This document shows, piece by piece, positions 3,746 through 62,389 of a DNA stretch of 64,000 bases. Below the pieces are notes generated by a model that was not told the origin of the DNA, searched no databases, and saw only the letters and a list, made by a program, of their open reading frames with translations. Made by a program: the position numbers and the translations under genes. Within the stretch, counting starts at the first letter, position 1. Each line of letters starts with the position of its first letter. The stretch spans positions 3,234 to 67,233 of the forward strand of contig JACPAY010000005.1 of NCBI GenBank assembly GCA_016180575.1, written 5' to 3'. Source of the DNA: Candidatus Omnitrophota bacterium. Lineage in GTDB: Bacteria; Omnitrophota; Gorgyraeia; Aquiviventales; Aquiviventaceae.

Positions 3746-4300
3746 ATGCGCGTGGTCATCGGGATCACCGGCGCCTCGGGCGCGGTCTTCGGGGTGGACT
3801 TCCTCCGGCGCTGCCCGGCGGAGGAGAAGTACCTCATCCTGACGAAGTGGGGCCGGTACGTCCTCAAGGAGGAAACCGGGCTCACCGAGCACCACCTGGC
3901 CGAGCACGTGAAGAAGAGCTTCTCCGATGAGGACCTCGCCGCACCCTTCTCGTCCGGCTCGACGCCGTTCGATGCGCTGGTCATCCTGCCCTGCTCGGTC
4001 TCGACGATGGCGAAGATCGCCTGCGGCCTGGCCGACACGCTGCTGACGCGCGCCGCGGCGGTCGCGCTCAAGGAGCGGCGCCGGCTCATCATCGGCCTGC
4101 GGGAGACGCCGCTCTCCACGATCCACCTGGAGCAGGCGGCCAAGCTGTCGCAGGCCGGGGCGATCGTGATGCCGATCGCGCCGCCGTTCTACCACCGGCC
4201 GCAGACCATCGATGAGCTGGTGGAGCAGTTCAACGCCAAGGTCCTCAGCCTCCTCGGGTTCGAGACCGCCCTCGCCTGGAAGCCCGAAGCCCTGGAATAA
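3746..4300 (+). CDS. ubiX: UbiX-type flavin prenyltransferase (MqnL-like)
   Basis: MRVVIGITGASGAVFG N-terminus and PCSVSTMAKIA motif. SD GGAGG upstream. Confidence 0.85.
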   Translation: MRVVIGITGASGAVFGVDFLRRCPAEEKYLILTKWGRYVLKEETGLTEHHLAEHVKKSFSDEDLAAPFSSGSTPFDALVILPCSVSTMAKIACGLADTLLTRAAAVALKERRRLIIGLRETPLSTIHLEQAAKLSQAGAIVMPIAPPFYHRPQTIDELVEQFNAKVLSLLGFETALAWKPEALE

Positions 4301-4320
4301 TAGGAACCGGTCCCATTTTT
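4298..4320. repeat. Family A palindrome copy A2
   Basis: taataggaaccggtcccattttt, between ubiX and the ubiD-like gene. Confidence 0.85.
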
Positions 4321-11179: not shown

Positions 11180-12040
11180 TTAGTTCTTGAGCGGCTCGAT
11201 GACGGAGAGGCGGGGCGCTGCGGGGATCAGCCCGGCGCGGTGGGCCTGGTCGAAGAGGGTGCGCAGCGCCTCGCGGCAGGGTTTGGAGAGGCCCAGCGAC
11301 TCCTCGTTGACGTACATGCTGATGAACTGGCGGGCGCGGGCGGCGTCGGTCCCCCGGCCGTAGCGCATGGCGTAGGCCAGCGCCTCCTCCTGATGCGCGA
11401 AGGCGTAGAGGATGCTGTCCCGCAGGACGGTGGCCGCGCGGGACGCGGTCCGGCGCCCGAGCGCTTTCTTCACGACGTTGAGCCCGAGCGGCAGCGGCAG
11501 CCTGGTCCGCTGCTGCCACCAGATCCCGAGGTCGAGCACCGGCAGAAGCCCCGCGTCCCGGTAGGTGAGCTGCCACTCGTGGATCACGAGGCCCGCGTCG
11601 ACCTCGCCCCGCAGCACCGCCTCCGGCACCTGCTCGAACCGCATGGCGACCGGCACGCAGCCGGGCAGGGCGAGGCGCAGGACGAGGCACGCGGTCGTCT
11701 GGAGGCCTGGCACCGCGATGCGGCGGCCCTCCAGCTCCTGGGGGCTGCGCGGCGCCTTCGAGATCACCACCGGGCCGTAGCCCTGCCCGACGCTGGAGCC
11801 CACCGCGACGATCCAGTAGTCTTTGGCGAGGGCCGGATAGCTGGCGGCGGAGACCGCCGTCAGGTCCAGCTCGGCCTCCTGCGCGCGGTGGTTGAGCGCG
11901 TCGATGTCGGCGATGACGTGCTCGAACCGGAGGCCGTCCATCGGGATCGCGCCGGAGGCGATCGCGTAGAACATGAAGGCGTCGTCCATGTCCGGCGTGT
12001 GGCCGACGGTCAGGGCGCGCTCGGCGGTCCGGATCACCAT
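11180..12040 (-). CDS. mqnD: MqnA/MqnD family protein, probable 1,4-dihydroxy-6-naphthoate synthase
   Basis: VGHTPDMDDAFMFYAI N-terminus and periplasmic-binding-like fold of the VitK2_biosynth family. ATGGTGA overlap with the upstream reductase gene. Confidence 0.6.
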   Translation of the reverse strand: MVIRTAERALTVGHTPDMDDAFMFYAIASGAIPMDGLRFEHVIADIDALNHRAQEAELDLTAVSAASYPALAKDYWIVAVGSSVGQGYGPVVISKAPRSPQELEGRRIAVPGLQTTACLVLRLALPGCVPVAMRFEQVPEAVLRGEVDAGLVIHEWQLTYRDAGLLPVLDLGIWWQQRTRLPLPLGLNVVKKALGRRTASRAATVLRDSILYAFAHQEEALAYAMRYGRGTDAARARQFISMYVNEESLGLSKPCREALRTLFDQAHRAGLIPAAPRLSVIEPLKN

Positions 12041-12738: not shown

Positions 12739-12766
12739 CGTCGGCGGTATTGTATCAGGAAGCGCC

Positions 12767-12816
12767 GAAAAAGTACCAGGTACTTTCTCCGCTTTGAGAA
12801 GTACCCGGTACTTTTT
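12767..12816. repeat. Family F: two A-like palindromes (AAAAAGTACCnGGTACTTTTT)
   Basis: gaaaaagtaccaggtactttc and gagaagtacccggtacttttt, 29 nt apart start to start, in the divergent FNR-mqnD / mutY intergenic region. Confidence 0.75.
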
Positions 12817-19116: not shown

Positions 19117-20746
19117 GCCCCTCGACGAGGACGAGCACCGCCAGCACGAGCAGGAGGCACGCGACGAGGGCGATCCCATCCAGCGCCGGCCGGCCGCTGA
19201 GCAGGCCCGCCGCCCACGGCCGGATGGTCAGGGCGAGCGACCAGAACGTCATCGTCAGCATGAACGCCGCCGGCAGCGCGCTCACCAGCCAGGGCCGGCG
19301 CGTGCGCTTCAGCCACACCGTGATCGTCACCAGGGTCAGCGCCGCCAACAGTTGGTTTGACGTCCCGAACAGCGTCCAGAACACCTTCCAGGCCGGCACG
19401 ATGTTCCCCATCGGGTCCCGCACCGTCCAGCTCACGCTCAGCGCCGGCAGCGCCAGGGTCGCGAGCGTCGCGCCGATGCCGCCCCAGCGCCCCTTCCAGC
19501 CGGTCAGCTCCTGGAAGACGTAGCGCCCCAGGCGCGTCGCCACGTCCAGCGTGTCGTAGATGAACGTGGCGAAGGCGAGCAGGGCGAACCCGCGCGCGAA
19601 CTCCCGGTTGATGCCGAACTGCTCCACGAAGTGGCTCAGGCCGCTCGCGTAGATCCGGTCGGGCGACTGCTGGGTCGCGACATCATTCGGCATGAGCAGC
19701 ATGACGGTGGATAAGGCCACCACCGCCACCAGCCCCTCCAGCAGCATTCCCCCGTAGCCCACCAGGCGGCAGTCCGGCTCCCGCGCGATCTGCTTGGACG
19801 TCGTGCCGGAGCTGACGATCCCATGGAACCCCGAGCAGGCCCCGCAGGCCACCGTCACGAAGAGGAGCGGGAAGAGCGGGAAGCCCCGCTGGCTCGTCCA
19901 GCCGAGGAACGCCGGGTACTGGATGCGGTCGCCTCCCACCAGGACCCCGACGACGCCGGCCGCGAGCGTGAGGTAGAGGAAGAACCCGCCCAGGTACCCG
20001 CGCGGCTGCAGCAGGAGCCACAGCGGGATGATCGAGGCGATGAAGCAGTAGGCGAGGATCACGCCGTTCCAGACAAGCTGCGGACGGACCGCCCAGGTAC
20101 TCGGGATGGCGAGCGGGATCGATTGGCCGACCCAGACGATCAGGCCCACGAGCGGCAGGAAGATGGCCGTCGCCAGTCCGAGCGGCATGCGCCAGCGGTA
20201 CAGGCACAGCCCCATCGCGCCGGCGGCGAACAGGTAGAGCGTGGAGGAAGCGGCGATGCCGCCGCCGTAGGCCGGCTCGACGAACGAGTGGCTCGTGAGG
20301 TCCGTGAAGGCGATGATGACGTAGATGAGCGACAGCCACACGAACCCCATGAAGAGCAGGTGCGCCCTGGGCCCGAGGTGCTCGTGGACGAGCTCGACGA
20401 TCGAGCGCGCGCCGTGCCGCACCGAGCTGACGAGGCTGGCGAAATCGTGCACCGCGCCGAAGAAGATGGCGCCGAAGACGATCCACAGCAAGGCGGGCAG
20501 CCAGCCGAACCACAGCGCCCCGAGGACCGGCCCGACGATGGGGCCGGCGGCCGCGATGGCGGAGAAGTGCTGGCCGAGGAGGAACGGCGCCTTGGCCGGG
20601 ACGTAGTCCACGCCGTCGTTGAGCGTGCAGGCCGGGGTCGCCCGATCGGGGGCGAGGTCGAGCCAGCGCGCGAGCAGCCGGCCGTAAACGGCGTAGGCCG
20701 CCAGGAACAGCGCGCACGCGGCGGCCGCGACCGCGAACAAGCTCAT
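19088..20746 (-). CDS. cstA: Carbon starvation protein CstA
   Basis: GQHFSAIAAAGPIVGPV, CGACSGFHGIVSSGTTSKQ and FGTSNQLLAA motifs. The 3' end overlaps the convergent ferredoxin gene by 29 nt. Confidence 0.85.
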   Translation of the reverse strand: MSLFAVAAAACALFLAAYAVYGRLLARWLDLAPDRATPACTLNDGVDYVPAKAPFLLGQHFSAIAAAGPIVGPVLGALWFGWLPALLWIVFGAIFFGAVHDFASLVSSVRHGARSIVELVHEHLGPRAHLLFMGFVWLSLIYVIIAFTDLTSHSFVEPAYGGGIAASSTLYLFAAGAMGLCLYRWRMPLGLATAIFLPLVGLIVWVGQSIPLAIPSTWAVRPQLVWNGVILAYCFIASIIPLWLLLQPRGYLGGFFLYLTLAAGVVGVLVGGDRIQYPAFLGWTSQRGFPLFPLLFVTVACGACSGFHGIVSSGTTSKQIAREPDCRLVGYGGMLLEGLVAVVALSTVMLLMPNDVATQQSPDRIYASGLSHFVEQFGINREFARGFALLAFATFIYDTLDVATRLGRYVFQELTGWKGRWGGIGATLATLALPALSVSWTVRDPMGNIVPAWKVFWTLFGTSNQLLAALTLVTITVWLKRTRRPWLVSALPAAFMLTMTFWSLALTIRPWAAGLLSGRPALDGIALVACLLLVLAVLVLVEGLKAFARRLQ

Positions 20747-22065
20747 CGGGGGCGGCCCTCGCGCTCCGAGAGCCAATAGAGCGGCAGGCCGACGGCGAGC
20801 AGCACGAACCCGAACGCGGCGTCGGCAGGCTGCTTGATGCAGACATCCGCGATGAACCCGGCGATGACGAGGCAGAACACCAGCGGCGTCCAGGGGTAGC
20901 CCCAGGCGCGGTATGGCCGGGGCGCTTTCGGCCGCAGGCGCCGCAGGCGCACGACGCCGAAGACCGCCAGGATGAAGAAGACCGAGATGACGACGGTGGA
21001 GTAGGTCATGATCTGCTCGAACGTCTTGGTGAAGACCAGGCCCACCGCGATGGCCGCGTTCGCCCACAGCGCCGTCGCCGGCGTGTGAAAGCCGGGGTGC
21101 ACGGTGCCGAGGCGCCCGAAGAGCGCGTGGTCCTTGCCCAGGGCGTAGAGGATGCGGCCGCCGGTGAGGATGTAGCCGTTGAGCGCCCCGAACGCGGAGC
21201 AGGCGATCATGCCGGCGATGAACGCCGCCCCCGCCCCGCCCCACAGCCGCTCCATCACGCTGGCGGCGACCAGCGGCGTGCGCACCAGCTCGTCCATCGG
21301 GATGGCGAGGAGGTAGCTCGCGTTCACCAGCAGGTAGAGCACGGTGACGCCCGCGACCCCCAGGATGATGGCCCGCGGCACGTTGCGGGTGGGCTGCCTC
21401 ACCTCCTCGGCGACGTAGGCCGCCTCCGTCCACCCGCCGTAGGTCCACAGCACGAAGACGAATGCCACGCCGAGCGACTGGAGCACCGGCACGTCAAGCC
21501 GCGGCATGGTCCAGTCCAGCGCCACCGCCTGCCGCGAGGCCAGAATGGTGAGGCCCGCCGCGACCAGCGAAACGAGCGCGCCGATCTTCAGGACGGTGAA
21601 GACGTTCTGCACGTACTTGCCCCACCGGACCCCGACGACGTTCACCGCGGTGAGCAGCAGGATGGCCCCTGCCGCCACCCATCGCAGCGCCCCGTTCCCG
21701 TAGGGGAGGAGGCGGCCGCCGTACTCGGCGAAGACGAACCCGAGGATCGCGATGGTGCCGGTGCGCTCGATGAACAGCTTCGTCCAGCCGAACAGGAACC
21801 CCCAGAACCTGCCGTAGACTTCGCGGATGTAGACGTAGTCGCCGCCGCTGGCCGGGAACATGGCGGCGAGCTCCGCGTAGCAGAGCGCGCCGCACAGCGA
21901 CACGACGCCCCCCACGAGCCACAGCAAGAGGAAGAGGGCGGGGGAAGGGACGTGGCCGGCGATGGCGCTGGCGGTCCGGAAGATCCCCACCCCCACGATG
22001 CAGCCCACCACGAGCATCGAGGCGTCGAACAGCCCGAGCGACCGAACTAACGCAGGTTTGTTCAT
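20743..22065 (-). CDS. APC-family amino acid permease
   Basis: 12-TM pattern with CYAELAAMFPASGGDYVY. ATGA overlap with cstA. Confidence 0.85.
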   Translation of the reverse strand: MNKPALVRSLGLFDASMLVVGCIVGVGIFRTASAIAGHVPSPALFLLLWLVGGVVSLCGALCYAELAAMFPASGGDYVYIREVYGRFWGFLFGWTKLFIERTGTIAILGFVFAEYGGRLLPYGNGALRWVAAGAILLLTAVNVVGVRWGKYVQNVFTVLKIGALVSLVAAGLTILASRQAVALDWTMPRLDVPVLQSLGVAFVFVLWTYGGWTEAAYVAEEVRQPTRNVPRAIILGVAGVTVLYLLVNASYLLAIPMDELVRTPLVAASVMERLWGGAGAAFIAGMIACSAFGALNGYILTGGRILYALGKDHALFGRLGTVHPGFHTPATALWANAAIAVGLVFTKTFEQIMTYSTVVISVFFILAVFGVVRLRRLRPKAPRPYRAWGYPWTPLVFCLVIAGFIADVCIKQPADAAFGFVLLAVGLPLYWLSEREGRPR

Positions 22066-26554: not shown

Positions 26555-26998
26555 TTGCTCCGCATCGACGGGCACAGCATGGCGCCGGTCCTAAAGGCCG
26601 GCGAGCTCGTCGTGGTCGAGGAGGGCGCGTACGCCTCCGCCGCACCCCGGCGGGGCGACGTGGTGGCGGCGCGCCCCGCGGCGCTGGGCGGCCGGGCGTG
26701 CGTCAAGCGCGTCGCCGGCCTCCCGCATGAGCGGGTGCGGGTCGGCGAGCGGGAGTGGCGGCTTGAGGAGGGGCAGTTCTTCCTCCTCGGCGACCGCGCG
26801 GAGGACAGCCTGGACTCCCGTGCCTTCGGCCCGGTCCCGCGCGAGGAGCTGCTCGGCCCGGTGCGCAAAATCGGGACCGGTTCCATTTTTCATCGCATCA
26901 GGCTGTTGGCGACGATGATGCGCGGGCGCGACAGCGGCGCCGCGGCGCGGGGCCGGGCGGCTTCCCCATTGTGTAACGAAAGCGGCCCTGGCATGTGA
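26555..26998 (+). CDS. sodX: S26-type NiSOD maturation protease SodX
   Basis: GHSMAPVL catalytic Ser motif and KRVAGLPHE. Needs the TTG start at 26555 to retain the Ser. The C-terminal tail reads through element A3. Confidence 0.65.
   Translation: MLRIDGHSMAPVLKAGELVVVEEGAYASAAPRRGDVVAARPAALGGRACVKRVAGLPHERVRVGEREWRLEEGQFFLLGDRAEDSLDSRAFGPVPREELLGPVRKIGTGSIFHRIRLLATMMRGRDSGAAARGRAASPLCNESGPGM
26867..26890. repeat. Family A palindrome copy A3 (inside the sodX 3' coding region)
   Basis: aaaatcgggaccggttccattttt, translated as KIGTGSIFH. Confidence 0.8.
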
Positions 26999-27026: not shown

Positions 27027-27065
27027 AACACGCAGGAGAGAGACGCTCTCCTGCGTGTTTTGCTT
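27027..27065 (+). terminator. Rho-independent terminator after sodX
   Basis: aacacgcaggagag-agacg-ctctcctgcgtgtt followed by ttgctt (14-bp stem, T-rich tail). Confidence 0.65.
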
Positions 27066-29231: not shown

Positions 29232-29349
29232 ACTCTCGAAACGGCAAACTTCCCGCAAGGGAGGGACGCAAAGCCGCGGGTCCTGGTGCCTGGCTCTTCG
29301 CGAAGCGAAGTGCCTGGCACCGGAAGGATAGCCGGGCTACCGAAAGAGG
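29232..29349 (+). promoter_or_regulatory. c-di-GMP-I (GEMM-I) riboswitch
   Basis: ACGGCAAAC-[ttccc GCAA gggag hairpin]-GGGACGCAAAGCC-[long P2 hairpin ggtgcc..ggcacc]-AAGGATAGCCGGGCTACCGA matches the order and conserved blocks of the Vc2-type aptamer as I recall them. Ends at the ATG of the DUF948-like gene. Confidence 0.75.
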
Positions 29350-32085: not shown

Positions 32086-32505
32086 TTGCGGATGCCGTCC
32101 TTTCCCGTGTCGGCCAAGAAGCAGCTCGCCCTCGAGGCCGCAATGCGCCGGCTGGGCGTCGATGAGCGCGACCTGGAAGAGCGGTTCATCCGCTCGCGCG
32201 GCCCGGGCGGGCAGAATGTGAACAAGGTCTCGACCTGCGTCGTCCTGCGGCATCGCCCCAGCGGCCTTGAGGTGCGCTGCCAGCAGGAGCGCTCCCAGGC
32301 GCTGAATCGGTTTCTCGCGCGGCGGCTGCTGCTGGGCCGCCTGGAGGCCGAGCGGCTGGGACGGGAGAGCGCCGAGGCCCAGGCCGTCGCCAAGCTGCGC
32401 CGGCAGAAGCGCAAGCGGTCCAAGCGGGCGAAGGAGAAGGTGCTGGCCGCCAAGCGGCTCCGGGCGGAAAAGAAAGCGCTGCGCCGCCCTCCTTCGCTCG
32501 ACTGA
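32086..32505 (+). CDS. arfB: GGQ-motif peptidyl-tRNA hydrolase, ArfB-like ribosome rescue factor
   Basis: SRGPGGQNVNKVST motif, ~139 aa, Lys/Arg-rich C-terminal tail. Confidence 0.7.
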   Translation: MRMPSFPVSAKKQLALEAAMRRLGVDERDLEERFIRSRGPGGQNVNKVSTCVVLRHRPSGLEVRCQQERSQALNRFLARRLLLGRLEAERLGRESAEAQAVAKLRRQKRKRSKRAKEKVLAAKRLRAEKKALRRPPSLD

Positions 32506-32528
32506 ACAATGGGACCGGTTCTATTTTT
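32505..32528. repeat. Family A palindrome copy A4
   Basis: aacaatgggaccggttctattttt, between arfB-like and the PPIase gene. Confidence 0.85.
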
Positions 32529-32544: not shown

Positions 32545-33078
32545 ATGAGGTGGTGGGGTATCGTTGGCGTGGTGGTTGGGGGAGGGCTCCTGATGGGATC
32601 AGCGCACGCGCAGTCTGACCGTCCCCGGGCGGTGATCGAAACCGCCAAAGGGCGCATCGTCATCGAGCTCTACGCGGAGGAGGCGCCGAAGACGGTGGCC
32701 AACTTCGTGAAGCTCGCCAAGGAGGGGTTTTACAACGGGATCATCTTCCACCGCGTGATCCCCGGCTTCATGATCCAGACCGGAGACCCCACCGGCGCGG
32801 GCATGGGCGGTCCGGGCTACACCTTTGAGGACGAGTTCGCTCCCGGCCTGCGCCACGACGGCCCCGGCGTGGTGTCCATGGCGAACGCGGGCCCCAACAC
32901 CAACGGGAGCCAGTTCTTCATCACCCTCGCCGCCGCCCCGTGGCTGGACGGGAAGCACGCGATCTTCGGCCGCGTGGTCGAGGGACAGGAAGCCGTCGAG
33001 CAGATCGCCGCCGCCGGGCGCGACGCCCAGGACCGTCCGCTCGACAACATCCCCATGACGCGCGTGGCCATCGAATGA
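32545..33078 (+). CDS. Cyclophilin-type peptidyl-prolyl isomerase, secreted
   Basis: [15 protein letters not shown] and [17 protein letters not shown] motifs. Start chosen after SD AAGGAGG; the ATG at 32509 lies inside element A4. Confidence 0.85.
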
Positions 33079-34069: not shown

Positions 34070-34120
34070 GACTCTCGATCACCCGTCCCCGCCTGAAGCG
34101 GGAACGTGTATCACCAGGCC

Positions 34121-34351
<231 letters not shown>

Positions 34352-34484
34352 CTAACCACACTAACAAAAACGCCGCCCGACAACCTTAGCGGTTGCCTTG
34401 CGGCTTTCCACCACTGAAGATCGTGCTTGTCTTGCCTATCTGCGTACAACAGCTTGTCGTGCACATGCACTCTGAACGCTTGCT

Positions 34485-46311: not shown

Positions 46312-46332
46312 ATTAGCTAAATATTAGCTTAT
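46311..46332. promoter_or_regulatory. Candidate MarR operator
   Basis: attagctaaatattagcttata: direct ATTAGCT repeat containing the palindrome TTAGCTAA, abutting the marR start. Confidence 0.35.
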
Positions 46333-46357: not shown

Positions 46358-46385
46358 GAAAAAATAGGAACCGGTACCGTTTTTC
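46358..46385. repeat. Family A palindrome copy A5
   Basis: gaaaaaataggaaccggtaccgtttttc, in the marR / IMPase divergent region directly upstream of TACAAT. Confidence 0.8.
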
Positions 46386-46387
46386 AG

Positions 46388-46393
46388 TACAAT
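46388..46393 (+). promoter_or_regulatory. -10 box TACAAT 6 nt before the IMPase ATG (leaderless-type)
   Basis: cagtacaatagcggcATG, immediately after element A5. Confidence 0.4.
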
Positions 46394-48548: not shown

Positions 48549-49392
48549 ATGCGGGCGTTGGTGCTGGGGGCGACCGGGCATATCGGGCTGCCCCTGGGTG
48601 TTCCATGCCGCTGGCTACTATCCCCGGTTTCGAGAGCGGCGCAAGGAGGCCATCGAGCGGGGCCTCCGGTCCACGCGCCGTCTCCTCGAGCAGCTCCGGC
48701 GGATGGGCCCCGCGCGCATCGTCTTCACGAGCAGCGCAGCCACCATCCGGCGCGTGCCCGGGCGGCCGGCGACCGAAGCGGACGCCGAGCCCTGGCCGCC
48801 GGCCGAGTGGCGGCCGCTCTACGCGACGGTCAAACTCGCGATGGAGCACGAGGTGCTGGAGGCCTGCCGGGGCGGGCTGCCCGCCGTCGTGGTGAACCCC
48901 AGCCTCTGCGTCGGGGAGTACGACGCGCGGCCCTTCTCCGGCCGGGCCGTCCTGGCATTCGCCCGGCCCGGCATCCCGGTCTACGTGCGGCACACCTTCA
49001 ACGCGGTCTACACCGGCGACGTCGCCATTGGGCACCTCCGCGCGGCCGAGCGGGGGCGTCTCGGCGAGCGCTATCTCCTCGTCGGCCGCAACGTGACCCT
49101 GCGGGAGTTCGCAACGCTCGTCGCCCGGGCGGCCGACGTGTGCCCGCCGCGGTGGCGCGTCCCGTACGGCCTCGTGTGGGCCGCGGCCGTCTCGACGGAG
49201 GCCGCCGCCTGGCTGGCGCGCACCGAGCCGTTGCTGCCGCGGGGTGCTGTCCACTCGCTGCGGATGGGACAGCTGCTGGATGGGACGAAGGCGCTGCGGG
49301 AGCTCGCGCTGCCCCAGACGCCGCTTGAGGAAGCCATCCGGCGGGCGCTTGCGTGGTTTAAGTTGCTTCCTTCCGGTATCAGATACCGGTAA
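48549..49392 (+). pseudogene. NAD-dependent epimerase/dehydratase with internal deletion and frameshift
   Basis: MRALVLGATGHIG Rossmann start (frame of 48549) is joined after ~16 codons to VFHAAGYY... (frame of 48598). About 50 residues normally between these motifs are missing. Confidence 0.7.
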
Positions 49393-49427
49393 AATAAACG
49401 GGTTAGTAGGCCGGTATCTGATACCGG
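49373..49427. repeat. Family B inverted repeat copy B3
   Basis: ccggtatcagataccgg ... ccggtatctgataccgg. Encodes the last codons (GIRYR) and the stop of the epimerase pseudogene. Confidence 0.85.
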
Positions 49428-54656: not shown

Positions 54657-55240
54657 ACGAGGGGCTGAAGAGCGAGCTGCAGAAGCAGGGCGTCTACGTG
54701 ACGACGTGGGACCAGCTCGTCAACTGGGGCCGGAGCAACTCGATCTGGCCGCTCCAGTTCGGCCTCGCCTGCTGCGCCATCGAGATGATCGCGACCGCGG
54801 CCTCGCGCTATGACATCGCCCGCTTCGGCTCCGAGATCTTCCGCGCCAGCCCCCGCCAGGCGGACCTCATGATCGTGGCGGGGACGGTGACGAAGAAGAT
54901 GGCGCCGCAGGTCGTGCGGCTCTACAACCAGATGGCGGAGCCCAAGTACGTCATCTCGATGGGCGCCTGCGCCACCTCGGGCGGCCCGTTCCACACCGGC
55001 TACAACGTGCTCAAGGGGATCGACCGGTACATCCCCGTGGACGTGTACATCCCAGGCTGCCCGCCGACGCCCCAGGGGCTCCTCGAAGGGCTGATGCGGC
55101 TCCAGGAGCGGATCAAGAGCCGCTCGATGGGCCAGGAGGTGGGGGCGAAGCAGGCGGCGTATCCCGTGCCCGCCTTCGGCGCCTCGGGCCTCGAGCCCCG
55201 CTATACCCCCGGCGTCTTCCAGCCCCGCAAGCCCTGGTGA
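54647..55240 (+). CDS. nuoB: NADH-quinone oxidoreductase subunit B
   Basis: [18 protein letters not shown] and PGCPP N2-cluster motifs. C-terminal extension present. Confidence 0.9.
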
Positions 55241-55264
55241 AAAACGGTACCGGTTCCCATTGTT
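55239..55264. repeat. Family A palindrome copy A6
   Basis: gaaaaacggtaccggttcccattgtt, between nuoB and nuoC. Confidence 0.8.
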
Positions 55265-56986: not shown

Positions 56987-56990
56987 CGGA

Positions 56991-57090
56991 GTCACAAAGT
57001 CACACAGAGGAGAAGCTGCACGCGGTCACAATGTCACATGGCTTCATGGCCAGTCCACCTTGTGACTTTGTGACCTTGTGACTTTGTGAC
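56991..57090. repeat. Family D copy D3
   Basis: 2+2 forward units and 4 reverse units (cttgtgactttgtgaccttgtgactttgtgac), between nuoD and nuoI. Confidence 0.85.
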
Positions 57091-57108
57091 TTCATAGGAG
57101 TATCTGCA

Positions 57109-59002: not shown

Positions 59003-60775
59003 ATGACATCGCAGCCTGGGGACTCTCCAGCCCGCGTCGCGGCCTCGGAGCCGGCCGCTATCGAGTGGGAGCGCAAGCCGAAGACGATCGACGCCAACCT
59101 CAAGGACTACGACGCCGCCTACAAGGGCTTCGACTGGAAATCGGTCGAGCGGGAGTTCGACTGGTCGAAGACGGGGAAGGTGAACGTGGTCCATGAGGCG
59201 GTGGACCGCCACGCCGCCTCCCCGCGCAAGGACAAGCTCGCGCTCGCCTTCACCGACTTCGCGGGCCGGGATGAGCGCTGCACCTTCCAGGACCTCAAGC
59301 GGCTCACGAGCCGCTTCGCCCACGCGCTGCGGCAGCTCGGCGTGAAGAAGGGCGACCGCGTGGGGACGTTCCTGCCGCGCACGCCCGAACTCTACATCGC
59401 GATCCTCAGCATCAACCGCATCGGCGCCATCCCCGTGCCGCTCTTCGAAGCGTTCATGGAGCAGGCGGTCGAGGACCGGCTGGGGGACAGCGAGGCGGTC
59501 GCCTGCGTCACCTCGCCCGCCCTGAAGGGCCGCATCCCGCTCAAGAAGCTGCCGAAGCTCAAGCGGCTCATCCTCGTCGGCGCCTCCGGCGCGCTCGCCC
59601 CCAACGAGGCGAGCTACGAGCAGGCCACCGCCAACGCCCCGGATTGGGTGGAGCCGGAGTGGCTCACTGTTGACGACGGCCTCGTCATCCACTACACCTC
59701 AGGCTCCACGGGAAAGTCCAAGGGGGCGCTCCACCGCCAGTACGCGATGGTCGGCCACTACCAGACGAGCAAGTGGGCGCTCGACCTGCGGGATGACGAC
59801 GTGTACTGGTGCACGGCGGATCCTGGGTGGGTGACCGGCACCTCCTACGGCATCTACGGTCCCTGGACGCTGGGGATCTCGAGCGTCGTGATCGGCGGCC
59901 GCTTCGACCCGGACCGGTGGTACGAGACCATCCAGCGCTACAAGGTCACGATGTGGTACAGCGCGCCCACCGCCTACCGCATGCTCATGTCCGCGGGCGA
60001 GGCCATCCCGAAGAAGTACGACCTCAAGAGCCTGCGCCACATCTGCAGCGTCGGCGAGCCGCTCAATCCGGAGGCGCTGAAGTGGGTCAAGAAGATCACG
60101 GGCCTGGCGCCCCATGAGACCTGGTGGATGACCGAGACCGGCATGCAGCTCATCTGCAACTATCGGAGCAAAGATTTCCCCATCGGGTGCACGGGCAAGC
60201 CGTTCCCGGGCACCTACGCGACGGTGGTGAACGACCAGGGCAGGGAGCTGCCGCCGGGCGAGCTCGGCCACCTCGTCGTCAAGCCGGGCTGGCCGTCGAT
60301 GATGAAGGAGATCTGGCGAAACCCCGTCAAGTATCAGGAGTACTTCCGCATCCCCGGCTGGTATGTGAGCGGCGACAGCGCGTACCGGGACGAGCAGGGC
60401 TACCTCTGGTACCAGGGAAGGGCGGACGACGTCATCAAGACGGCGGGCGAGCGCGTGGGGCCGTTCGAGGTCGAAAGCGCCCTCGTCGCGCACCCGGCGG
60501 TGGCCGAGGCGGGGGTGATCGGCAAGCCCGACCCGGTGCGCGGGCACATCATCAAGGCCTTCGTCTCGCTGCGCAAGGGCCACCAGCCCTCGGAGCAGCT
60601 CAAGCAGGACATCGCCGACTTCGTGAAGAACAACCTTGCGGCCCACGCCGCCCCGCGCGAGATCGCGTTCGTGGACAAGGTGCCCAAGACCCGGTCGGGG
60701 AAGATCATGCGCCGCGTCCTGCGCGCCTGGGACCTCGGCCAGCCCGTCGGCGACATCTCGACGATGGAAGAATGA
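59003..60775 (+). CDS. acs: AMP-forming acetyl-CoA synthetase family ligase
   Basis: YTSGSTGKSKG AMP motif, WWMTETG, SGDSAYRDEQGY and PKTRSGKIMRR motifs. Confidence 0.8.
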   Translation: MTSQPGDSPARVAASEPAAIEWERKPKTIDANLKDYDAAYKGFDWKSVEREFDWSKTGKVNVVHEAVDRHAASPRKDKLALAFTDFAGRDERCTFQDLKRLTSRFAHALRQLGVKKGDRVGTFLPRTPELYIAILSINRIGAIPVPLFEAFMEQAVEDRLGDSEAVACVTSPALKGRIPLKKLPKLKRLILVGASGALAPNEASYEQATANAPDWVEPEWLTVDDGLVIHYTSGSTGKSKGALHRQYAMVGHYQTSKWALDLRDDDVYWCTADPGWVTGTSYGIYGPWTLGISSVVIGGRFDPDRWYETIQRYKVTMWYSAPTAYRMLMSAGEAIPKKYDLKSLRHICSVGEPLNPEALKWVKKITGLAPHETWWMTETGMQLICNYRSKDFPIGCTGKPFPGTYATVVNDQGRELPPGELGHLVVKPGWPSMMKEIWRNPVKYQEYFRIPGWYVSGDSAYRDEQGYLWYQGRADDVIKTAGERVGPFEVESALVAHPAVAEAGVIGKPDPVRGHIIKAFVSLRKGHQPSEQLKQDIADFVKNNLAAHAAPREIAFVDKVPKTRSGKIMRRVLRAWDLGQPVGDISTMEE

Positions 60776-60799
60776 AAAACGGGACCGGGTCCCTTTTTT
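60775..60799. repeat. Family A palindrome copy A7
   Basis: aaaaacgggaccgggtccctttttt, starting at the last base of the acs TGA stop. Confidence 0.85.
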
Positions 60800-60817
60800 C
60801 CACCGTTGGCCGATCAG

Positions 60818-60842
60818 AAAAAATGGACCCGGTCCCAATTTT
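60818..60842. repeat. Family A palindrome copy A8
   Basis: aaaaaatggacccggtcccaatttt, supplying the tlpA-like start codon. Confidence 0.85.
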
Positions 60843-61350
60843 GCTTTCGCTGCTTGTTCTCGCCGGCTGCGGCCAGCAGGGGATCGGCGCCGATTGGAAA
60901 CGCATCGAGCCCGGCGTCGCCGCGATCGACTTCGAGCTGCCGCAGCTCGACGGCCCGCCGGTGAAGCTGTCGGACTACCGGGGCCGCGTCGTCGTCATGG
61001 AATTCTGGGCGACCTGGTGCGGCCCCTGCCGGTTTTCACTTCCATCGCTTGAGGTCATCTACAAGCGGTACCGCGACCGAGGGATGACCGTCCTCTTGAT
61101 CAATGAGGGGGAAGAGGCCGAAGTGGCGCGGAAATGGGCGGAGAAGCGGTTCACGGCTCCTATCCTCCTGGACCGGGACCAGGCGGTCGGCGCGCGCTAC
61201 CGCGTGCGCGGCATCCCGCGGCTCTTCATCGTGGACCAGGCGGGGAACCTGGCGTATGCGCATGAAGGCTACGGCGGGGGGCTTGAGCGGAACCTCACGC
61301 TGATCCTCGATGAGTTCCTGGCGCCCCCCGCACCCGCCGCAGATGGCTGA
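60823..61350 (+). CDS. TlpA/ResA-like thioredoxin-fold lipoprotein
   Basis: Lipobox LAGC and WATWCGPC motif. The ATG and first ~7 codons lie inside element A8. Confidence 0.8.
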   Translation: MDPVPILLSLLVLAGCGQQGIGADWKRIEPGVAAIDFELPQLDGPPVKLSDYRGRVVVMEFWATWCGPCRFSLPSLEVIYKRYRDRGMTVLLINEGEEAEVARKWAEKRFTAPILLDRDQAVGARYRVRGIPRLFIVDQAGNLAYAHEGYGGGLERNLTLILDEFLAPPAPAADG

Positions 61351-62207: not shown

Positions 62208-62217
62208 CCACAATGGG

Positions 62218-62389
62218 TTAGAACCGGTTTCATAAATCCCCGCGGCCGCGCTGGGCCTAGCGGCGAGGCCCGCAAGGCGCGAGGAGCGTGGCGTACTCGC
62301 AGACGAGTACGCGAGCGACGAGCAACGCCGCGGGCCGACGCCGAGGCGCTCGCAACGCGGCTCGCGCGGATTTATGAAACCGGTTCTAG
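62218..62389. mobile_element. Family G MITE-like element (22-nt TIR TTAGAACCGGTTTCATAAATCC)
   Basis: TIRs at 62218-62239 and 62368-62389. The interior is a long imperfect palindrome centred on gcgtactcg-caga-cgagtacgc. Confidence 0.8.

Follow-up and report, generated by a model that had tools for sequence, protein, structure and literature searches.

The DNA analysed here is a 64,000-nucleotide stretch from a Candidatus Omnitrophota bacterium (contig JACPAY010000005.1), referred to below as the window. Ten palindromic copies of one short repeat (E1 to E10, 22–27 bp each) are located at gene boundaries within these 64 kb, whose base composition is 69% G+C. We hold with moderate confidence that the copies form a lineage-specific family of short palindromic repeats, similar to repetitive extragenic palindromes (REPs) and miniature inverted-repeat transposable elements (MITEs), and that they are small copied elements and not dedicated terminators. 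This reading draws on the family status of the copies, their discrete subtypes, their placement, the gain, replacement and nesting seen among relatives, and the fold energies.

The repeat family and its placement at stop/start junctions

We performed a fuzzy scan of the window using the query GAAAAATGGNACC(N)GGTNCCATTTTTC, with mismatches counted over the 24 specified positions. Eight copies were found at ≤ 4/24 mismatches and none at 5–8, and shuffled windows yielded 0–0.6. The two remaining copies, E3 and E4 at 12767–12816, are variants with the core GTACC(N)GGTAC. Thus, eight close copies and two variants are present, compared with about 0 expected by chance. The half-site GGTNCCNTTTTT gave 18 matches with at most one mismatch (about 0.7 expected), 16 of which were inside eight palindromic elements; the other two were isolated, at chance level. 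The best consensus was (T)GAAAAA-t-GGNACC(N)GGTNCC-a-TTTTTC(A), and all copies end in (T)GAAAAA and TTTTTC(A).

A previous sequence-only reading of this DNA had listed the ten positions, including the two variants, and had called their density unusual. Related sequence is present at every position, the variants are real, and the density is that of a genuine family at gene boundaries. The same reading described the repeat as a perfect 24-bp palindrome, but the quoted 24-mer is absent from the window; no more than three copies match it with at most three mismatches, and no copy is perfect. A generic search for perfect palindromes gave no discrimination in such GC-rich DNA. No match in Rfam 15, at the gathering threshold or at E ≤ 1, overlapped any copy, and literature searches with the core sequences returned only cloning primers and the like. 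The copies are as follows.

E1, 552–577: irregular copy AAAAAAAATGGGAGCCGGTCCCTTTT between thyX and a hemQ/Cld-like gene
E2, 4298–4320: type I core reversed, GGAACCGGTCCC; between ubiX and ubiD
E3, 12767–12788: GTACC-A-GGTAC variant, first half of an inverted dimer; between fnr-like and nth-like genes
E4, 12795–12816: GTACC-C-GGTAC variant, second half of the E3/E4 dimer; nth-like ATG 4 nt downstream
E5, 26867–26890: type I core forward, GGGACCGGTTCC; at the end of a sodX-like S26 peptidase gene
E6, 32505–32528: type I variant GGGACCGGTTCT; between arfB-like and cyclophilin genes
E7, 46358–46384: type II core forward, GGAACCGGTACC; between marR (− strand) and an inositol-monophosphatase gene (+ strand)
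E8, 55239–55264: type II core reversed, GGTACCGGTTCC; between nuoB and nuoC
E9, 60775–60799: odd-centred GGGACC-G-GGTCCC, the sole perfect core; after acs
E10, 60818–60842: GGACC-C-GGTCC, inverted partner of E9; holds the annotated tlpA ATG at 60823

The copies fall into discrete subtypes. Even-centred copies (ACCGGT) are single units with asymmetric 12-mer cores that occur in either orientation. The type I core, GGGACCGGTTC(C/T), is forward at E5 and E6 and reversed at E2, and the type II core is forward at E7 and reversed at E8; the single copies thus carry an GGGACCGGTTCC or GGAACCGGTACC core. Odd-centred copies (ACCNGGT) form the inverted pairs E3/E4 and E9/E10, whose partners have complementary centre bases. 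The centre base is G in E9 and C in E10; E10 is therefore the reverse complement of E9. The pair at 60775–60842 was confirmed, its copies being mutually inverted and 43 bp apart from centre to centre.

Gene identities were assigned by Pfam searches with about 60 open reading frames (ORFs) of the window, and the geometry of each junction was taken from the ORF coordinates. Six of the eight loci lie between co-directional genes and two between divergent genes (E3/E4 and E7). In the co-directional group, five loci have the stop codon of the preceding gene within the 5′ edge of the element (the first 1–3 nt, in the A-tract): TAA 551–553 at E1, TAA 4298–4300 at E2, TGA 32503–05 at E6, TGA 55238–40 at E8, and TGA 60773–75 at E9. 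The proposal that most copies start near an upstream stop codon therefore stands for these five copies; it does not apply to E5, where the ORF reads through, to E10, or to the divergent E3/E4 and E7. The downstream ATG is inside the element or 3–5 nt past it in five cases (E1, E2, E4, E8, and E10), one of which is divergent. The genes adjoining the copies are functionally unrelated to each other.

The individual junctions are tight. At E1, the thyX stop codon is in the A-tract and the ATG of the hemQ/Cld-like gene (559) is inside the element. The first 3 nt of E2 are the ubiX stop codon, and ubiD starts 5 nt past the T-tract at ATG 4326 (the start of P0121, a 100% identical protein), which lacks a Shine-Dalgarno sequence. 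E8 occupies the entire 27-nt spacer between nuoB and nuoC, with the nuoC ATG (55268) 3 nt past the element. Both the ubiX/ubiD and nuoB/nuoC pairs, which had been named as flanking genes, were confirmed by Pfam. At E6, which is overlapped by the arfB-like stop codon, the cyclophilin gene follows with a Shine-Dalgarno sequence of its own (AAGGAGG) and an ATG at 32545. E5 lies directly 3′ of the last conserved residues of the sodX-like peptidase, and the ORF continues through it into a non-conserved tail. E3/E4 lies in an 82-bp region between the start codons of the fnr-like gene (− strand, 12738) and the nth-like gene (+ strand, 12821), and E7 is in the divergent promoter region of marR and the inositol-monophosphatase gene. 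At E9, the acs stop codon is overlapped by an ATG at 60772–74 (ATGA).

The ATG within the repeat had also been proposed as the annotated start of the hemQ-like and tlpA-like ORFs. For tlpA this is correct, as the product P0001 (175 aa, 100% identical) begins at ATG 60823. For hemQ it is likely; numbering from ATG 559 fits the solved HemQ/Cld chains, and the resulting length fits the 248-aa orthologue in the relative L211. The annotated TlpA start gives MDPVPILLSLLVLAGC, an n-region without positive charge, and the in-frame ATG at 60772 would add K, R, and K. We therefore suspect that the true tlpA start is upstream of 60823 and that both E9 and E10 are translated. In every relative checked, the tlpA reading frame is uninterrupted from the acs stop codon onwards, through one to four elements.

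Gain, replacement and nesting among relatives

We compared the junctions with those of syntenic relatives (70–92% protein identity; designated by L numbers). The nuoB/nuoC element was found in the window only; in L001, L002, and L003 its place is taken by a C-terminal tail of nuoB, and in L203 the genes as called overlap, suggesting a gain in the lineage of the window. The thyX/hemQ junction of L211 is TGATCATG and is element-free. Between ubiX and ubiD, a different palindrome is present in each of three relatives: GAAAAAGTGCCTGGCACTTCTG in L208 (92% UbiD identity), a long nested palindrome with family-like outer arms in L211, and an unrelated hairpin in L209.

The acs/tlpA junction has changed in a similar manner. 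L222 has a type I forward and reverse pair of the GGGACC type, as in the window, which folds at −42.5 kcal/mol. L204–207 have a GGGAGC-N-GCTCCC pair, that is, a coordinated change from GGGACC to GGGAGC in both arms of both copies. A GTGCC-N-GGCAC pair is located here in L002, and a single copy of this type precedes the end of the L001 contig. The junction is filled in L203 and L221 by composites of about 120–240 bp that have family-like arms on the outside and other palindromic units nested inside; an N-filled assembly gap lies at this element in L203. At arfB/ppi in L218, the remnant of a single copy contains an inserted pair, the insertion being at the centre of the E6 orthologue. The nested insertions of L203 and L218 each have ACC(N)GGT on either side. 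L218 also has a related copy at the end of sodX in the same place as E5, beyond which the ORF tails are unrelated.

Identical sequences are shared between different loci. E7 and inverted E8 have an identical 20-mer, E6 (arfB/ppi) and the copy L222a (acs/tlpA) an identical 21-mer, and the copies of L208 (ubiX/ubiD) and L002 (acs/tlpA) an identical 19-mer. The whole composite unit of the E3/E4 dimer, including an identical spacer TCCGCTTTG, is common to the acs/tlpA dimer of L002. Intragenic copies were found at E5 and in L120, where a LigD-phosphoesterase-like ORF (MAAQPIFVVHEHHASRLHHDLRL..., 661–790) meets a family copy some 30 codons in and terminates soon afterwards; this gene has apparently been truncated by an element pair. 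Gain, replacement, nesting, subfamilies shared across loci and genomes, and dimers moving as units together point to a copied or mobile repeat family, and not to independently evolved terminators or a regulon.

The family resembles described repeats in several respects. REPs, including SMAG and other families with a GTAG/CGTC tag, are 20–40 bp imperfect palindromes that are species-specific, with several subfamilies per genome; they occur in many copies, solo or paired in inverted dimers, which have short spacers and can adopt a single large stem-loop; most are found 3′ of ORFs between co-directional or convergent genes, and they can supply stop codons from their termini, are sometimes intragenic, and insert within other palindromes (Di Nocera et al. 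2013, PMC3733652). Likewise, the window has a short imperfect palindrome in ten copies, solo units together with inverted dimers that fold as one stem-loop (E9/E10, E3/E4, and L222), mostly co-directional junctions with the stop codon in the element at five loci, intragenic copies, and nesting. In contrast to REPs, the stems are much shorter and have A/T-tract arms, an ATG that serves as a start codon is provided by the element as well, and two loci are divergent promoter regions, which is atypical. The dimers also resemble MITEs such as the Correia elements of Neisseria, in that each looks like a tiny element with terminal inverted repeats of about 19–25 bp and a short spacer, would be co-transcribed with neighbouring genes, and shows nested insertions.

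Several observations weigh against this assignment. The hallmark of the described REP super-families is a conserved, unpaired tetranucleotide (GTAG or CGTC) at one end (PMC3733652), and this tag is absent from the ends of every copy, which read GAAAAA/TTTTTC. No transposase or recombinase was found by Pfam among the approximately 60 ORFs of the window, and no RAYT (REP-associated transposase) gene was seen in its 64 kb. Unlike in MITEs, no target-site duplication was recognised in the flanks of the copies and no parent insertion sequence was identified for the family, and the elements are far smaller (50–70 bp as a dimer and 26 bp solo). A metagenome pattern scan with AAAAN{1,3}GGNACCGGTNCCN{1,3}TTTT yielded, among the matches listed, mostly unrelated palindromes or conserved genes from many environments; apparently only L120, L199, and L141, and perhaps L146, L124, and L139, are family members among them, so few further members were found. 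Finally, E5 and E6 (in L218) and E9/E10 (in L222) have kept their positions while the flanking non-coding DNA diverged. Together with the coordinated changes of the arms, these kept positions seem to point to selection or homogenisation and not to neutral junk.

We nevertheless favour copied repeats, for which the following scheme can be proposed. The unit has a GC-rich core built around ACC(N)GGT with an A-tract on one side and a T-tract on the other, and is present solo or as an inverted dimer. Copies may have been produced by duplication, transposition or gene conversion, with turnover at gene boundaries. With the sequence T(G/A)AAAAA(T)G at either end, the element could supply the upstream stop codon and, 4–5 nt further on, the downstream ATG; alternatively, it may directly adjoin an existing ATG. 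As it carries its own stop and start codons, the element could be tolerated between tightly packed genes; operon genes overlap or abut in several relatives, for example the called nuoA-D genes of L203. An element with T(G/A)AAAAATG ends could replace such a junction without destroying either gene, and survivorship could thus explain the stop/start placement.

Two further observations concern the relative L209, which has lower G+C. It has its own boundary palindrome, ATAAATTTTGC-NNN-GCAAAATTTAT, at 11754–11780 and 21439–21465, the TAA of the first copy being the ubiD stop codon. A restriction-modification pair (an N6/N4 methyltransferase and a BsoBI-like endonuclease, 555–2856) is inserted between its thyX and hemQ genes.

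RNA folding and possible functions

We calculated the fold energies of the copies to evaluate the proposal that each is a symmetric mini-terminator. Single copies gave −3.4 to −14.7 kcal/mol, compared with −10.1 ± 4.1 for random 36-mers of the window, and their z-scores (−1.4 to + 0.4) were about 0. The pair at 60770–60846 (E9, spacer, and E10) folded as one long hairpin at −33.6 kcal/mol (z = −4.5) with the 3′ tail AAUUUUGCUU, and the E3/E4 dimer as one hairpin at −25.4 kcal/mol (z = −6.7). A simple terminator scan was passed by E9 alone among the copies, on both strands, and terminator-like sites showed no enrichment anywhere in the window. The proposal as worded was therefore not supported: the singles fold like random sequence, E9/E10 forms one hairpin instead of two mini-terminators, and the copies lie in operons, divergent promoters, and ORFs.

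A covariation count was formally strong, but the inner five pairs are perfect owing to the selection of the sequences, and the orthologous comparisons are fairer. The ratio of G·U to A·C on the sense strand was about 5:2, from too few copies to inform.

It is improbable, in our estimation, that the copies are selected bidirectional intrinsic terminators or attenuators, in which the A-tract, hairpin, and U-tract halt or attenuate RNA polymerase in either direction. The architecture is that of the textbook on both strands, E9 passes the scan, the A/U-flanked hairpins of the dimers (including that of L222) are strong, the L204 dimer is followed by AUUUUUU, and the scan revealed no enrichment of canonical terminator-like sites elsewhere in the window. 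However, the solo stems are of 4–6 bp with mismatches and are no more stable than shuffled or random sequence, and the even-centred cores have a stem mismatch and no room for a loop. Nor are the copies at the ends of transcription units; they lie inside the nuo and ubiX/ubiD operons 3–5 nt before start codons, in the two divergent promoter regions, and in the tlpA reading frame of relatives. Identical 20-mers at different loci would be unexpected from convergent terminators, and exact identity between loci points to copying. In addition, a conventional long-stem, terminator-like hairpin with a U-tract sits downstream of E5.

This hairpin, at 27027–27062 (+ strand), is about 140 nt downstream of E5. 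Conserved in L218 and located upstream of an LTD/PEP-CTERM gene, it has a 14-bp GC-rich stem followed by UUUUGCUU and folds at −25.3 kcal/mol (z = −5.7). Either sodN-sodX has its true terminator here, or the hairpin belongs to a 5′ untranslated region.

Once transcribed, a solo unit of the repeat would form a weak A-tract/hairpin/U-tract module. An inverted dimer such as E9/E10 would form a strong hairpin, with the stop codon at the start of its 5′ arm and the following start codon within its 3′ arm. On reaching the stop codon, a terminating ribosome would disrupt the 5′ arm and so free the start codon in or beside the 3′ arm, thereby coupling the two cistrons. Dependence of downstream translation on the ribosome that terminates upstream is, in this model, the most likely consequence of the elements, and some attenuation or protection of mRNA ends is possible. 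REPs located ≤ 15 nt from a stop codon stall ribosomes in E. coli, according to the account of Liang, Rudd and Deutscher (2015) given in PMC12306157. The hairpin in the window similarly begins 0–5 nt after the upstream stop codon, so that a terminating ribosome would meet it. It differs in that the solo hairpins are weak and the next start codon is part of the module.

Alternatively, translational coupling may be the primary selected function of the repeats. In that case, the hairpin between stop and start would be opened only by the ribosome terminating upstream, followed by re-initiation at an ATG that lacks a Shine-Dalgarno sequence. The stop codon at the 5′ edge of the element at five of the six co-directional loci is consistent with this, as is the ATG inside or 3–5 nt past the element without a Shine-Dalgarno sequence, which was seen at the five window copies listed above and at L001-8635, L208, L211, L204, and L222. 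The acs/tlpA pair persists down to 72% TlpA identity (L222) with coordinated arm changes, and the tlpA frame stays open in the relatives. On the other hand, E3/E4 and E7 have no upstream cistron and E5 has no downstream start, E6 and its L218 counterpart are followed by a normal Shine-Dalgarno sequence, the solo hairpins are too weak for occlusion, and orthologous junctions in relatives work without the element. We regard coupling as the primary function as quite improbable.

A broader form of this idea seems to us unlikely, although somewhat less so. The element may be a portable stop-hairpin-start cassette that inserts between overlapping cistrons without breaking the genes, and its inverted dimers may enforce strict termination-reinitiation coupling. 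It could also have been co-opted as coding sequence, namely as the N-terminus of HemQ and, in the lipoprotein signal peptide of TlpA, as the lysine-rich n-region plus the first part of the hydrophobic core. If so, the repeats would be a class, to our knowledge not described previously, that shapes the translation of operons in an uncultured phylum.

The repeats could also be operators at which GGNACC(N)GGTNCC between A/T flanks is bound by a dimeric protein, be it a global regulator or one associated with the nucleoid. The sites are palindromic, the half-site has invariant positions (G1 G2 T3. C5) and one freely varying position, half-sites alone do not occur beyond chance level, and two divergent promoter regions contain copies, one of them beside marR. 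This is nevertheless very unlikely. The spacing at the centre is 0 or 1 nt, and most copies are at the 3′ ends of genes, in operons or in ORFs and not upstream of promoters; the lack of functional relation among the adjoining genes also argues against a common operator. The cores are exact asymmetric types in both orientations, and whole cores have been switched among close relatives (GGGACC, GGGAGC, GTGCC, and GTGTC). In addition, marR has a separate palindrome over its −10 element. Resemblances to LexA, Noc/ParB, and hix-like sites were rejected, as the spacings do not fit.

The separate marR palindrome, AGCTAAATATTAGCT at 46315–46329, overlaps the predicted −10 sequence (TAATAT) of the marR promoter and precedes the marR start codon by 4 nt. 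This palindrome is likely the MarR auto-operator and distinct from E7, and E7 was rejected as a MarR operator on this account. TACAAT −10 boxes were found at 12749–12756 and 46388–46393, 6–10 nt before the ATGs of the fnr-like and inositol-monophosphatase genes; this short distance suggests leaderless or near-leaderless mRNAs. The sequence at 12749–12756 reads TATTGT on the opposite strand, and the promoter may therefore be bidirectional. The T-tract of the element was considered and rejected as a promoter −10 sequence. The distance from element to TACAAT is 2 nt at the inositol-monophosphatase gene vs 12 nt at fnr, and thus there is no fixed relation.

Other features and implications of the repeats

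Other inverted repeats were observed. Between nuoD and the next gene (56987–57108), tandem heptamer/octamer arrays are inverted, with GTCACAA... facing ...TTGTGAC in a long intergenic hairpin. The same junction of L001 (7945–8035) has an array with GCTCTGG... facing ...CCCGAGC, and L209 has one between fnr and nth (19480–19590) with CCACAGAA... facing ...TTCTGTGG. These arrays have a common architecture and unrelated sequences. Two 17-bp palindromes, CCGGTATC(A/T)GATACCGG, at 49373–49389 and 49411–49427, are 38 bp apart in the intergenic region upstream of a DsbD-like gene and may represent two paired operators or a further repeat family. In the intergenic region between a PTPS-like gene and an SDR gene, both on the − strand, GATTTATGAAACCGGT(T)CTA occurs as inverted copies at 62213–62233 and 62369–62389, about 150 bp apart.

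Two RNA families were matched elsewhere in the window. A c-di-GMP-I-GGC riboswitch aptamer (RF03167) was found at 29234–29345 (+ strand) with 62.9 bits, above the gathering score, upstream of genes for a small hypothetical protein and a YtxH-like protein. A cspA thermoregulator-like 5′ region (RF01766) at 34079–34472 (− strand) scored 60.5 bits, below the gathering score of 78, with E = 8e-13, and overlaps a cold-shock-protein gene.

Families of short palindromic repeats have been described chiefly in Proteobacteria and in a small number of other phyla. Here, short palindromic intergenic repeats occur in an uncultured, high-GC lineage labelled Omnitrophica; they are tagless and are built like a miniature bidirectional terminator. 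Their placement at stop/start junctions is unusually exact, with the stop and start codons supplied by the element itself. Gene callers will be misled by these repeats when placing start codons; tlpA, hemQ, and the sodX tail are examples. The repeats probably also fragment metagenome assemblies of the lineage, as the N-filled gap at the L203 element and the mostly short contigs of the relatives suggest. If the coupling is true, the elements would be a simple natural module that enforces translational coupling.

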